The translations under genes were made by a program, and so were the position numbers. A stretch of 64,000 nt of DNA from a virus (Duplodnaviria; Heunggongvirae; Uroviricota; Caudoviricetes). The notes under the pieces are model-generated. The model made no database searches. It was given only the letters and a program-made list of their open reading frames with translations, and was not told the DNA's origin. The DNA lies in IMG/VR virus record IMGVR_UViG_3300007734_000754, positions 1-64,000 of that record; one strand, given 5' to 3'. Below are positions 22,263-27,935 of the stretch, in pieces. How positions within the stretch are numbered: position 1 is the stretch's first letter; every line of letters starts with the position of its first letter.

Positions 22263-23087
22263 ATGTTATCAAAATTCAACACAGGTTTAGATTCTTACCT
22301 TACAAAAGATCAAGTTAGAGCTTTAGCACCAGTAGCATTCGCTACAGAGCCAACTAGTAACAAAGTGAGTGACAAGTACTTACATGTTAACACAGAAACA
22401 ATCATCGACGACTTAGCACAGTTAGGATGGTTACCGGTAACAGCCTCTCAAAGAAAGGCTAGAAAGTCTGATAAGACTACAATCTTCTCCAAGCACATGG
22501 TATCATTTCAAAATCCAGATCTTATGATTAAAGGTAAGAATGGTGATGATGCTTTCCCAAGAATCATTCTAACGAACTCTCATGATGGATTTAATTCATT
22601 CCAGTTCAGAGTTGGTATCTACAGATTAGTCTGTTCAAATGGACTTGTAGTAGCTGACGAAGAATTCTCAGCATTTAGAATCCGTCACAAAGGATATACC
22701 TTTGAAGAATTAAGAGGTGTAGTATCTCAAGCAGTAGCTGATCTTCCAAATAAGGTACAGATCTTAAATCAAATGCAGTTAAGAGAATTAACTCCTGTAG
22801 AGCAAAGACAATTAGCTATCGATGCTATGCAATTGAGAACAAATAGAATCGATGCTGAATGGGATGAAGAAACAATCCAAGACGTTTTAACTCCTACAAG
22901 AGATGCTGATAAAGGAAATGACCTTTGGAAAGTATTTAATGTAATCCAAGAGAAGATTACCCAAGGAGGATACTCAGCAGCATTGAATGGTGCTAAAGTA
23001 AGAAAGGTTAGAAAGATTAAATCATTCGAGAAAGATCTAGAAGTTAATCAAAAGCTATTCAAGTTAGCAACAGCATTAATCAACTAA
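22263..23087 (+). CDS. DUF932-like phage/plasmid protein
   Basis: ILTNSHDGFNSFQFRVGIYRLVCSNG resembles the conserved core of the DUF932/TIGR03299 family. Confidence 0.35.
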   Translation: MLSKFNTGLDSYLTKDQVRALAPVAFATEPTSNKVSDKYLHVNTETIIDDLAQLGWLPVTASQRKARKSDKTTIFSKHMVSFQNPDLMIKGKNGDDAFPRIILTNSHDGFNSFQFRVGIYRLVCSNGLVVADEEFSAFRIRHKGYTFEELRGVVSQAVADLPNKVQILNQMQLRELTPVEQRQLAIDAMQLRTNRIDAEWDEETIQDVLTPTRDADKGNDLWKVFNVIQEKITQGGYSAALNGAKVRKVRKIKSFEKDLEVNQKLFKLATALIN

Positions 23088-24410: not shown

Positions 24411-25250
24411 ATGAAGAAAATTTTAGTTATCGTAGCAGTAGTAGTAGGTATTTTCGCAATGTTTAGTTCATGCGATGTAATCAATGCCGGACACGTAGGA
24501 GTAAAAGTTGATATGTATGGCTCAGGTAAAGGAGTACAGAACGTAACAGCATGTACAGGATGGGTATTTTATAACCCTATCACAACAAAGGTTTATGAGT
24601 TTCCAACTTATATCCAGCATAAGGAGTATAAGAAGACAGAAGATGGAGATAATTCATTCACTGTAAATACTAAGGATGGTTCTGAGTTTAGAGTATCGCC
24701 AATACTAAATTACTCTGTTAATCCAGACAAAGCACCTTCAATCTTTGCAAAATATAGAAGAACGTTACCAGAGTTAGAGGAAGGATTCTTAAAGACAGCA
24801 ATATATGATGCATTCAGATTAGCAACAAATAAGTATACAGCAGAGGAATTAATATCTAATAGAGCAGTATTTGAAGTAGAAGTAAGACGATTGTTATCAA
24901 ATCAAATTACTAAAGAAGGATTTCTCGTTAATCAATTTACATCTAATCTAGAATACCCAGCTTCATTTAAGAATGCCATTAACGCTAAGAATAATGCAGT
25001 ACAAGCCGCGTTAACAGCCGAGAATCAGGTACAAACGGCAACAGCACAAGCTAAGATTAAAGTAGCAACTGCCCAAGGTAATGCCGAAGCATTATTGACA
25101 AATGCAAGAGCTGAGGCTGAGTCAAATAAATTAAGACAGTCTACATTAACAGCAATGCTATTGCAACAACAATGGATTGAGAAGTGGGATGGTGCTTTAC
25201 CAAAGACACAATTGGCATCAGGATCTAATACGATGTACGGCTTAAAGTAA
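24411..25250 (+). CDS. SPFH/band-7 (prohibitin-like) lipoprotein
   Basis: Lipoprotein signal MKKILVIVAVVVGIFAMFSSC followed by SPFH-like sequence (GHVGVKV...). C-terminal Ala/Gln-rich coiled coil. Confidence 0.55.
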   Translation: MKKILVIVAVVVGIFAMFSSCDVINAGHVGVKVDMYGSGKGVQNVTACTGWVFYNPITTKVYEFPTYIQHKEYKKTEDGDNSFTVNTKDGSEFRVSPILNYSVNPDKAPSIFAKYRRTLPELEEGFLKTAIYDAFRLATNKYTAEELISNRAVFEVEVRRLLSNQITKEGFLVNQFTSNLEYPASFKNAINAKNNAVQAALTAENQVQTATAQAKIKVATAQGNAEALLTNARAEAESNKLRQSTLTAMLLQQQWIEKWDGALPKTQLASGSNTMYGLK

Positions 25251-25337
25251 AAATAAATTGAAAATAATTGTAAAAAGGCTTGCTTTGGTAGGCCTTTTTT
25301 CATATATTTAGGTATAGAAATTAAAAAGAGAAAGATT

Positions 25338-26072
25338 ATGCCAAAAATATTTAAAGTAGGAGGATGTGTTAGAGATGGACTTCTAGGAGTAAAGACAAAA
25401 GATATCGACTTCACATTTGTATTAGAGGACCTAAACAAAACAGTTGAAGAAGGATTCAAAGAGATGGAACAATGGATGATAGATCAAGGATTTATAATCT
25501 TTCAATCAGTTCCAGAGATGTTTACAATCAGAGCTAAATTTCCAAGTGATCATAAATTTGCTAAATTGGATGCTGACTTTGTAATGGCTAGAAAAGAAGT
25601 CGGATACGTAGAAGGAACAAGACGTCCAATACTAGAATTAGGAACATTGGAAGATGATTTAGTTCGTAGAGACTTCACAGTCAATGCAATGGCTGAAGAT
25701 GAGGATGGAAATCTAATTGATTTATTTGATGGTATGTGGGCTTTAGAAAATAAGATGCTTCTCACACCTCTTGATCCAGCACAGACATTCTTAGATGATC
25801 CTTTAAGAATGCTAAGAGCACTTAGATTTTCAATCACTAAAGGATTTATAATAGCTCCTAAGGTTTGGGCAGCGATGTTTATTCCAACTCTAATTAATAA
25901 ATTGGAGGAGGTAGTAAGCGGAGAGAGAATAAGAGAGGAAGTTATAAAGATGATGAAAGCAGATACTGTAGCAACTCTACGACTATTGGCTGAAATTGAT
26001 AAAATAGAGCCTAGATTTGTAGAGGCTATATTTGGAAAAGAGATGTGGTTAAAACCAACATTCGAAAACTAG
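25338..26072 (+). CDS. CCA-adding/poly(A) polymerase-family nucleotidyltransferase, head-neck only
   Basis: KVGGCVRDGLLGVKTKDIDF matches the GGxVRDxLLG...DxD head motif. RDFTVNAMA...LID and DPLRMLRALRF match the neck motifs. At 244 aa it lacks the tRNA-binding body/tail. Confidence 0.65.
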   Translation: MPKIFKVGGCVRDGLLGVKTKDIDFTFVLEDLNKTVEEGFKEMEQWMIDQGFIIFQSVPEMFTIRAKFPSDHKFAKLDADFVMARKEVGYVEGTRRPILELGTLEDDLVRRDFTVNAMAEDEDGNLIDLFDGMWALENKMLLTPLDPAQTFLDDPLRMLRALRFSITKGFIIAPKVWAAMFIPTLINKLEEVVSGERIREEVIKMMKADTVATLRLLAEIDKIEPRFVEAIFGKEMWLKPTFEN

Positions 26073-26139: not shown

Positions 26140-27417
26140 ATGGAGAATACATTTGATTTAAGAAAATTTTTAGTTGAAAATAAATTAACATATAATTCTA
26201 GACTTGTAGAAGGACAACAACTTACTCCTGAAGAGCAAAAAGCAGTAGATTATGTATTAGGTTTAGATGAAGGAGTAGTAGGTGATATAGTAAGTAGAGC
26301 TAAAGAAATAGCTAGAAAAGGATTACTAAAAGGAGCAGTACTTGCTACCTTACTAGCAACTCCAAATATAGCTCAAGCTCAAAAAACACAAATTCAGCAA
26401 ATAGCTTCTACAACAACAACAACAGCACCTACTCAAAAAGCAACTCCAGCAGCTGCTACATATGCTGCATCACCTAAGACAGTAGTGCCGGGAACAATTA
26501 AAACAGTTAACTTTACTCAAACTTTTGCAAGTGGAGAAGTATATTTAACAAACAAAGATGCATTAGCAAAAGAAATGGGTGAGTTACAAGCCTTTCTAAA
26601 AGGAAAAGATGCTTCTAAATTCAGAGTTGTAATTGTAGCAGGTGAATCTCAAGTAACTAATCCAAAAGGGTACGAAACTAAAGGTTCATTAGCACAAGCA
26701 AGAGCCAAAGCAGTTGAAAATGAAATAAAAGGTTTAAAGTTTAGTAATATCGATATTAAGACTGAAATAGGAACCACTGCTTATAAACCAGGTAATAATA
26801 TAGACGATCCTAAATATCAAGCAGAACAATTTGTTACTATAAACATTATAGCAAATAATGATATTTGTAGTATGCCAGATGTTGATAGAAATGAAGGGCA
26901 GGGAGTAGCTACAAATAACTATGTAACCTACGATGATTACATCAGTGGTGTAGGAGAATTAGTATTAGATACTGGTACAATACCTGATAGAATGGTTGTA
27001 TTGGACGCAAATGGTAATATAAAACAGGATACAGGTTACATAACTACCAAAACAAGTAAATATAAAGATTGGAAATACACACCAGCACATGTTTTAGCAT
27101 TGACAAACGCTTACATAGCCGGAAATGTATCGATGAAAGGTATTGATCCAAAAACTGTAATAACTGTAACTGATTACGATGATTTAGTAAAACAGATATC
27201 AAATACCGCTAAACCGGGAGTTATAGGAGATGAAATAGGGCCGGCATTAAATCAAATGAAAAAAATGATTTTGAATGGGCAGAAAGAATTTGTTATCTAC
27301 AATTTAGGAACTTCCGTAGCTAAATTGAAATTTGATCAAAATAAAGGAGAAGTTCAAGCTAAAGTATATTCACCTGTAGGTAAGACAGGTTACAATATAA
27401 AAGGTAGTTGTAAGTAA
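26140..27417 (+). CDS. secreted/anchored protein with N-terminal FDLRKFLVENKLTYNSRL domain, hydrophobic segment and Thr/Ala-rich linker
   Basis: Internal signal-like segment LLKGAVLATLLATPNIAQA, then TTTTTAPTQKATPAAAT low-complexity linker. N-terminal motif shared with ORF 974..1213. Confidence 0.45.
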   Translation: MENTFDLRKFLVENKLTYNSRLVEGQQLTPEEQKAVDYVLGLDEGVVGDIVSRAKEIARKGLLKGAVLATLLATPNIAQAQKTQIQQIASTTTTTAPTQKATPAAATYAASPKTVVPGTIKTVNFTQTFASGEVYLTNKDALAKEMGELQAFLKGKDASKFRVVIVAGESQVTNPKGYETKGSLAQARAKAVENEIKGLKFSNIDIKTEIGTTAYKPGNNIDDPKYQAEQFVTINIIANNDICSMPDVDRNEGQGVATNNYVTYDDYISGVGELVLDTGTIPDRMVVLDANGNIKQDTGYITTKTSKYKDWKYTPAHVLALTNAYIAGNVSMKGIDPKTVITVTDYDDLVKQISNTAKPGVIGDEIGPALNQMKKMILNGQKEFVIYNLGTSVAKLKFDQNKGEVQAKVYSPVGKTGYNIKGSCK

Positions 27418-27503
27418 AAATAATTTAAAAATAATTAAGAAAAGAGTTGCTAGTTCAACTCTTTTTTATTATCTTTAAGTATTATTAAAAACAAATAAGA
27501 GTT

Positions 27504-27935
27504 ATGAAAAAATTATTAGTACTGCTGTTATTAAGCACAGCAATGTTCTCACAAACAACTACGGTAAAAGGAATTACTTTATCTTATGATAAAGTCAGTC
27601 AAACAATGACATTAAGTATTCCACAAAACTCTATGAAGGTTCATAGTAAAGATGAACAGGTAAGAGTTGTAATCAATAAAGAGTATAGTTTAAAGAAGTA
27701 CATAGGAGGTCTTCCAGTACTAACATCAGCCAATTACTTTACACACGAAGGATACTTCTACTCTAATATGTCTTACTTTCAAACTAGTCGACCTAGTAAC
27801 AGTATAGTAGTAAAGAATAATCTAATCTTTAAGTTTACAGATGTAGAAAAAGGAGAATATGTTTTAGAGGTAAGTGATTTATGTGATTGGAAATGGGAGA
27901 GTAACGTAAATAGTAATTCATTAATAGTAAAATAG
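27504..27935 (+). CDS. secreted protein (cleavable signal peptide)
   Basis: MKKLLVLLLLSTAMFSQT signal peptide. Own promoter and terminator. Confidence 0.45.
   Translation: MKKLLVLLLLSTAMFSQTTTVKGITLSYDKVSQTMTLSIPQNSMKVHSKDEQVRVVINKEYSLKKYIGGLPVLTSANYFTHEGYFYSNMSYFQTSRPSNSIVVKNNLIFKFTDVEKGEYVLEVSDLCDWKWESNVNSNSLIVK

Follow-up and report, generated by a model that had tools for sequence, protein, structure and literature searches.

A phage-encoded class II CCA-adding/poly(A)-polymerase-family nucleotidyltransferase consisting of head and neck only

Introduction

Bacterial class II CCA-adding enzymes, such as those from Bacillus stearothermophilus (PDB: 1MIV) and Planococcus (PDB: 6IBP) and the 450-550-aa enzymes of the Bacteroidota, contain the catalytic motifs A-E, a flexible loop of full length, a head and neck fold with an (E/D)DxxR nucleotide template, and C-terminal body and tail domains. 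The body and tail anchor the T-loop/elbow of the tRNA and, to our knowledge, all class II CCA-adding enzymes characterised to date hold the tRNA with both. The full-length flexible loop, which lies between motifs A and B, is required for the addition of A, and in CC-adding enzymes it is deleted. Here we describe a gene whose 244-aa product shares motifs A-E, the loop length, the head and neck fold and the (E/D)DxxR template with these enzymes and ends just past the neck. The gene is located in a 64-kb stretch of caudoviral DNA (positions 1 to 64,000 of the IMG/VR virus record IMGVR_UViG_3300007734_000754), referred to below as the window, where it occupies positions 25338-26072 on the plus strand, from an ATG start codon through the stop codon; the motifs, the two hairpins and the immediately neighbouring genes described below are on this strand as well. 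We propose that the product is probably an active minimal CTP/ATP:tRNA nucleotidyltransferase, which would add or restore the CCA end of tRNAs during infection and would supplement the enzyme of the host.

The closest cultured-phage homologue is gp032 of Cellulophaga phage phi4:1 (YP_008240620.1), the product of a 735-nt coding sequence with 51% amino acid identity to the window protein, which, like other phage records, already carries the annotation "tRNA nucleotidyltransferase". Both belong to PHROG 24229, a family that is also represented in Microbacterium, Arthrobacter, Synechococcus and Lak phages. The two proteins are 244-245 aa long, consist of head and neck, and have an identical end point, although they come from different phage lineages, the phage of the window being a relative of the immuto-like Flavobacterium myovirus. 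The gene therefore adds a member to a large, previously annotated family of phage genes and does not found a new one; an initial annotation, made from the sequence alone, had treated it as something unusual. As an annotation, it is a routine phage auxiliary gene of tRNA metabolism with a named family. The point of interest is the absence of the domains that anchor tRNA, which is strongly conserved in the family under strong purifying selection.

Two further groups of described enzymes are relevant to the comparison. The full-length tRNA nucleotidyltransferases of jumbo phages (PHROG 2244) share with the window protein the catalytic core and a presumed role in tRNA maturation or repair. The window protein matches only positions 4-208 of the 392-position PHROG 2244 profile, because the full-length enzymes retain both of these C-terminal domains. 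The best matches by structure and by sequence are to class II enzymes that add A or CC (Aquifex aeolicus, PDB: 1VFG and 4WC2; PDB: 3WFO; S. pombe cca2, PDB: 9NS4), with E values in the PDB sequence search of 4e-16 for 4WC2 and 2e-24 for 9NS4. In the work of Tretbar et al. 2011, the specificity for A addition is said to be set by the C-terminal region. The window protein differs from the A-adding enzymes in that it lacks a C-terminal region and from the CC-adding enzymes in that it contains the flexible loop; its sub-specificity could be for A, CC or CCA addition.

Family assignment and catalytic motifs

Comparison with Pfam identified PF01743, the poly(A) polymerase/CCA head family which the initial annotation had named, at residues 5-141 (E value 6.2e-19; 69 bits against a cut-off of 23). 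The neck module PF12627 was matched at residues 169-219 with a score barely over the threshold (22.4 bits against a cut-off of 22). Residues 3-233 correspond to positions 5-233 of the 245-position profile of PHROG 24229 (E value 8.9e-67). The sequence matches in the PDB are all to class II tRNA nucleotidyltransferases or to the bacterial poly(A) polymerase (PAP) PcnB, with E values down to 2e-24 for the CCA- and A-adding enzymes, and are confined to the N-terminal ~200-260 residues of the targets. The NCBIfam equivalogs for CCA tRNA nucleotidyltransferase, PcnB and the A-adding enzyme are likewise matched over the first ~190-280 profile positions only. Together with the predicted fold and the kinship of the window with Flavobacterium phage vB_FspM_immuto, these profiles fully support the assignment as a phage-encoded class II nucleotidyltransferase of the CCA-adding/poly(A) polymerase family that is cut down to head and neck, in agreement with the minimal class II enzyme first suspected.

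The conservation of individual residues was scored in an alignment of 69 diverse members of the short family (alignment A1). Residues G8, G9, R12, D22, D80, D107, R111, D112, N116, D128, G132, D154, R157, R160, R163 and E201 are invariant, and D13, D24, R85, G102, R110, F113, T114, A117, A119, R197 and L238 are conserved in at least 90% of the sequences. The four motifs on which the initial annotation was based (GGCVRD, DxD, RDFTVNAMA and DPLRMLRALRF) are all present in the 244-aa open reading frame (ORF). Motif A (25359-25409) includes a glycine-rich turn, GGCVRD at residues 8-13, and the two catalytic carboxylates D22 and D24 in the sequence DID at residues 22-24. By analogy with class II structures, the invariant D80 (25575-25577) is probably the third metal-binding carboxylate. 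Motif B (RRDFTVNAMA, residues 110-119; 25665-25694), with the conserved R110, R111, D112 and N116, is the element of ribose and NTP recognition. It belongs to the head domain, and of the two motifs that had been placed in the neck, RDFTVNAMA and DPLR, only the second (as DDPLR) is found there. Both D128 and G132 of motif C (25719-25733) are invariant in A1. Motif D (DDPLRMLRALRF, residues 153-164; 25794-25829), which includes D153, D154, R157, R160, R163 and F164, is the (E/D)DxxR template for CTP and ATP in the neck. The motif E region, R197 to E201 (25926-25940), falls within the match to PF12627. After the last helix, the protein ends with a family-specific C-terminal motif of consensus WLxPT (W237-L238-K-P240-T241; 26046-26060), which is kept in 7/7 close relatives and is modelled as coil with a predicted local distance difference test (pLDDT) score of ~78-86.

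The flexible-loop region A84-T103 (ARKEVGYVEGTRRPILELGT; 25587-25646) lies 5' of motif B and is ungapped relative to 6IBP and 1MIV. Residues ~84-109 align without gaps to the loop of these CCA-adding enzymes from Planococcus and B. stearothermophilus, which indicates that the loop is of full length. The functional meaning attached to the loop rests on published work (including PMC2910056).

The sequence TPLDPxxTFxDDPLRMLR around motif D is common to the window protein, the host enzymes of the Bacteroidota, and eukaryotic enzymes (S. pombe cca2, Arabidopsis), and the best PDB sequence matches are eukaryotic because of this common stretch. The consensus of the short family at motif D, LRxVGDP..R..EDPLR, differs from the sequence in the window.

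PcnB belongs to the same superfamily as the window protein and has the same head and neck fold. This common fold raises the alternative of an untethered RNA-tailing enzyme, which would add C/A-rich or poly(A) tails to RNAs other than tRNA, such as host mRNAs and small RNAs, leading to decay and host shut-off or to the regulation of phage transcripts. The absence of the body and tail and the acidic nature of the protein would fit such an activity, as would the position of the gene, which stands alone in an accessory region of the window with no tRNA genes nearby. However, the A1 profile matches 6IBP and 1MIV with E values of 2.4e-44 and 6.3e-43, respectively, and E. coli-type poly(A) polymerases with values of ~1e-30 to 1e-31 (overall, 1e-44 for CCA enzymes as compared with ~1e-31 for PcnB). 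By its profile, the family is clearly nearer to CCA-adding enzymes than to PcnB. The scores against the PcnB equivalogs fail their cut-offs (TIGR01942, 83.7 bits against 305.65; NF008634, 59.7 against 702), and the C-terminal PAP-specific, RNA-binding regions of PcnB are absent. Furthermore, the motif D template for CTP and ATP and the flexible loop are strictly conserved, and the family has tRNA and RNA-repair genes as neighbours, not genes of RNA decay. We consider an RNA-tailing enzyme improbable. The modification of proteins, which the initial annotation had mentioned as another possible activity, found no support.

Predicted structure and cellular homologues

The AlphaFold2 model of the protein has a pLDDT of 96 and a predicted template modelling (pTM) score of 0.89. 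A Foldseek search of the PDB with this model returned class II tRNA nucleotidyltransferases (A-, CC-, and CCA-adding) and PcnB only. The template modelling score (TM-score) is 0.66-0.72 when normalised to the query and 0.36-0.49 when normalised to the target, and because the target-normalised values are low by comparison, the model is seen to span the head and neck only.

Cellular homologues were collected by a scan of 185,579 species genomes. Among the matches listed, the cellular proteins are all full-length, come mostly from Bacteroidota (Flavobacterium, Chitinophaga, Bacteroidales), and have 35-42% identity with the window protein. No short form was present among the bacterial genomes listed, a result that is suggestive and not proof, since the scan was pattern-limited. 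All of the complete Bacteroidota ORFs (77/77) encode 450-550 aa and extend at least 223 residues (median 255) beyond the end of the alignment. The enzyme of Flavobacterium succinicans (475 aa; locus L122), for example, has an HD-type motif in its C-terminal half and shares the TPLDPxxTFxDDPLRMLR sequence with the window protein, and Flavobacterium CCA enzymes have ~40% identity with the window protein over residues 5-206. In contrast to these canonical class II enzymes, the window protein is phage-borne and acidic and lacks ~220-255 C-terminal residues, which comprise the body and tail and, in the Bacteroidota, the HD region. The absence of the body and tail, already remarked upon from the length of the ORF, is thus confirmed by the partial-length matches, the target-normalised TM-scores and the additional residues of the 77 Bacteroidota homologues.

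Conservation of the short form

In 80 viral loci with 47-95% identity to the window protein, the stop codon is located 0-4 codons past the end of the alignment at the query C-terminus. The sole deviations are two frame-disrupted loci and naive start-codon calls. In a collection of 5.8 billion proteins, the best 120 clusters at 90% identity (67-97% identity to the query) have lengths of 239-250 aa, with the exception of one 184-aa fragment. A library of representatives at 50% identity contains 177 proteins with E values below 1e-30, and the best 150 of these are nearly all 225-265 aa long. The family comprises thousands of proteins and, when clustered at 50% identity, at least about 150 groups. 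The ratio of nonsynonymous to synonymous substitution rates (dN/dS) was calculated against seven close relatives; the whole gene gives 0.06-0.15, and its last 35 codons give 0.13-0.39. These comparisons of sequence indicate that the gene is intact and under purifying selection, that it is not a fragment, and that its short length is real.

A length half that of the cellular homologues, together with scores below the NCBIfam equivalog cut-offs, is what would be expected if the gene had come from a CCA enzyme of a host and were now a decaying fragment or an inactive remnant. The low dN/dS, the invariance of the catalytic residues, the C-terminal end point that is identical across 47-95% identity, the very confident compact model, and the existence of thousands of family members all speak against a remnant, to which we give almost no credence. 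A pseudogene, in particular, is effectively refuted by the dN/dS values and the conservation.

Four predicted proteins of 1433-2190 aa (P0196, P0239, P0243 and P0255) consist of a GNAT domain, the nucleotidyltransferase, a second GNAT domain and topoisomerase I. They look like read-through gene calls, and we have rejected this fusion as a true architecture. The calls do suggest that in one lineage the nucleotidyltransferase gene is flanked by a gene for a GNAT acetyltransferase.

Proposed function

In the proposed mechanism, the head domain would carry a two-metal active site and the (E/D)DxxR protein template of the neck would select CTP and then ATP, with the full-length flexible loop allowing the switch from C to A addition. 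The enzyme would in this way add or restore C74-C75-A76 at the 3' ends of tRNAs during infection. Its substrates would include phage tRNAs, whose genes in related phages nearly always lack an encoded CCA, as well as host tRNAs with trimmed tails, and its activity would supplement that of the 475-aa-type CCA enzyme of the host. The comparisons show the integrity of the gene, the fold, the conservation of the catalytic and templating residues, the length of the loop, the shared truncation and purifying selection, while catalytic activity, specificity for CCA, a tRNA substrate and the physiological role are what we infer. An acidic protein that lacks the body and tail is expected to bind tRNA weakly and mainly at the acceptor end, or else to need a partner for it.

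Tretbar et al. 2011, who studied A-adding enzymes, reportedly found an intrinsic ability to add CCA in class II catalytic cores whose loop is intact. The C-terminal part constitutes the tRNA-binding region of class II enzymes, and both in the human enzyme and in RcuCCA deltaC14 the addition of CCA persists when the binding of tRNA is too weak to measure (PMC12013499). An enzyme made of head and neck is therefore plausible, given that CCA is added under unmeasurably weak binding and that the core would be intrinsically capable of it. A role in tRNA maturation or repair is also supported by the RNA-repair neighbours and by the tRNA clusters without encoded CCA in the relatives described in the next section.

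Several observations weigh against this proposal. The protein stops just past the neck and has no tRNA-binding body or tail, and it is acidic, with a pI of 4.87 and a net charge of -10 (the median pI of the family is 5.6). The cut-offs of the NCBIfam equivalogs were all failed (TIGR02692, 111.9 against 438.8; NF009814, 106.6 against 290; NF008137, 92.4 against 451). The host possesses its own full-length CCA enzyme, on which it relies, as 0/6 sampled Bacteroidota tRNA genes encode CCA. Within the 64-kb window, ARAGORN detected no tRNA gene and Rfam, applied with its gathering threshold, gave no match at all, and tblastn detected no homologue of RNA ligase, Pnkp, HAD_SAK_2, metallophosphoesterase or phrog_14949, the products of genes that accompany this family elsewhere. 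The related phage immuto has 3-4 tRNA genes at 20-21 kb, beyond the part of its genome that corresponds to the window; three of them were re-detected, and 2/3 of these lack an encoded CCA. Since immuto has these tRNAs without a nucleotidyltransferase gene, the enzyme is dispensable for the maturation of phage tRNAs in this lineage. The phage of the window may also carry tRNAs elsewhere in its genome. Finally, full-text literature searches found no biochemical or genetic study of any phage or truncated class II enzyme. On balance, an active minimal tRNA nucleotidyltransferase is still the interpretation that we favour. If the 244-aa core makes CCA, it would reveal the least that template-independent CCA synthesis requires and might provide a compact tool enzyme.

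Gene neighbourhoods across the family

The genes within 10 kb of the nucleotidyltransferase gene were clustered in 83 loci, which correspond to 24 lineages after dereplication at 80% identity. The most frequent neighbour is phrog_14949, a protein of ~200 aa with no Pfam match (58/83 loci; 9/24 lineages). An RNA ligase with a PF09414 domain and a PHA02142 OB domain occurs in 42/83 loci (10/24 lineages) and adjoins the nucleotidyltransferase gene in loci L017, L023 and L026. The HAD_SAK_2 "Swiss-army-knife" phosphatase, a HAD-family enzyme of RNA repair, is present in 29 of the 83 loci (6/24 lineages), an SPFH protein in 28 (5/24), a metallophosphoesterase in 25 (7/24), and a DNA ligase in 23 (6/24). 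A T4-type Pnkp, composed of an AAA_33 kinase and a HAD_PNKP phosphatase, also occurs in 23 loci (3/24 lineages), and in L060, L078 and L023 it is one to three genes from the nucleotidyltransferase gene. Clusters of tRNA genes were found within 10 kb in 10/84 loci, and CCA is encoded in 4/64 unique phage tRNA genes near the nucleotidyltransferase gene. By guilt-by-association, this is good evidence that the family acts on tRNA and takes part in RNA repair. In the clade of the window itself (8 loci), SPFH is present in 8/8, phrog_14949 in 6/8, the window not being among them, and RNA ligase in 0/8. The repair of tRNA 3' ends, as first suggested for this gene, accordingly has contextual support in the relatives, from the RNA ligase, Pnkp, HAD_SAK_2 and metallophosphoesterase genes and the CCA-less tRNA clusters, and none in the window.

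The frequency of phrog_14949, often immediately downstream of the nucleotidyltransferase gene (loci L005, L006 and L011), brings up a split enzyme or obligate heteromer, in which tRNA would be bound in trans by a body/tail-like protein, by the CCA enzyme of the host, or by phrog_14949. A hidden Markov model (HMM) was built from the C-terminal halves of the 77 Bacteroidota CCA enzymes and compared with six-frame translations of the window and of more than 80 phage loci. No body/tail homologue was found anywhere in the 64-kb window, and a split enzyme encoded within it was rejected on this ground. The single significant match, outside the window, was in L005 (E value 1.6e-6), and the half of the profile that was matched includes the HD region. 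A conserved downstream partner in the window was also rejected, the downstream genes in L003 and L005 being related neither to one another nor to any part of the window. A heteromer is, in our view, very unlikely.

The locus L005, a 317-kb contig, has PTH2, SmpB and an AAA_33 kinase in its neighbourhood. ARAGORN predicted a tRNA at L005:7842-7914 with the anticodon CTA (called tRNA-Pyl), i.e., of the TAG-suppressor type, beside PTH2, SmpB, the RNA ligase and the nucleotidyltransferase gene, which may hint at the reassignment or suppression of a stop codon in that jumbo phage.

The recurrence of the gene, in several divergent lineages of phages, beside RNA ligase, Pnkp, HAD_SAK_2 and metallophosphoesterase also suggests a special case of CCA addition, namely dedicated counter-defence. 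As part of a toolkit of kinase-phosphatase, ligase and phosphoesterase, the enzyme would restore tRNA 3' tails that host immunity has removed or blocked, for instance through tail cleavage of the Cas12a3 type or through toxins directed at the CCA end. Only damage to the 3' tail, or a missing CCA, would serve as a substrate for a CCA-adding enzyme. PrrC, RloC and colicin D, which had been put forward as sources of the relevant damage, cut in the anticodon loop, and their products are mended by kinase-phosphatase and ligase and not by the addition of CCA. Cas12a3 is a nuclease that cleaves the CCA tails of tRNA as a defence against phage; one Cas12a3 is from a Bacteroidetes bacterium, and viral counter-measures are stated to be unknown (PMC12851939). 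With the cleavage of tRNA tails newly recognised as an anti-phage strategy, phage CCA enzymes become candidate counter-measures. In addition, the jumbo-phage review of Iyer et al. counts a CCA-adding enzyme among the RNA-repair functions of phages (PMC7824862). However, Cas12a3 releases ACCA, so that the discriminator base is lost as well (PMC12851939), and one would not expect CCA addition by itself to rebuild a correct acceptor end. The CCA enzyme of the host should already repair the tails, no repair partner is present in the window or within 10 kb in its 8-member clade, in which RNA ligase occurs in 0/8 loci, PADLOC gave no match, and there is no known anti-defence annotation. We regard a dedicated counter-defence role as rather unlikely, if less so than RNA tailing. 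More speculatively, and with a small chance of being correct, the very large, phage-restricted head and neck clade could be a self-sufficient minimal CCA adder which reads the acceptor end only, perhaps with phrog_14949, and which rebuilds tRNA tails attacked by Cas12a3-like immunity.

Genomic setting of the gene in the window

A relative of the window is Flavobacterium phage vB_FspM_immuto (MW353175.1), a myovirus with a 160-kb genome; of a 12-kb query, 30% matched it at 84% nucleotide identity. The window is a mosaic relative of immuto, in which the 84% identity is found in patches (comparison of L001 and L086-L088), and shares synteny with it from the glycosyltransferase cluster via a DUF932 gene (22263-23087) to the baseplate and tail genes. 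The counterpart region of immuto contains glycosyltransferases, many small accessory ORFs, and then baseplate and tail genes. No homologue of the nucleotidyltransferase is present in immuto, and the tblastn matches in phages are all below 60% identity.

The gene directly upstream of the nucleotidyltransferase gene (24411-25250) encodes an SPFH/Band 7 membrane protein (PF01145; E value 7e-23). The gene directly downstream (26140-27417) encodes a 425-aa protein with a sub-threshold OmpA-like match only. The block formed by the SPFH, nucleotidyltransferase and OmpA-like genes is not found in immuto. The neighbours also differ from those in phi4:1, where a PARP-like protein and a DNA ligase are encoded instead. 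In that phage, gp031 (L002:6728-7879), with a PARP catalytic domain (PF00644), follows the nucleotidyltransferase gene, and is itself followed by one small hypothetical gene and an ATP-dependent DNA ligase. Beyond the 425-aa ORF, the window encodes a 143-aa protein (27504-27935) with an N-terminal hydrophobic segment that resembles a signal peptide or lipoprotein signal, and with no family match. The 425-aa and 143-aa ORFs sit where close relatives carry phrog_14949 and are thus a swapped accessory cassette.

A scan with a sigma-70 promoter consensus, which does not cover the promoters of Bacteroidota, gave 14 sites as compared with 13.9 expected. A consensus scan for terminator-like sites in the region found 4 as compared with 0.8 expected. 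One of these hairpins, with a 12-pair stem followed by a T run, lies between the SPFH and nucleotidyltransferase genes (25272-25299), and another lies after the 425-aa ORF (27438-27467). From their positions in the sequence, the two hairpins possibly bracket a transcription unit of two genes, i.e., the nucleotidyltransferase gene and the 425-aa ORF.

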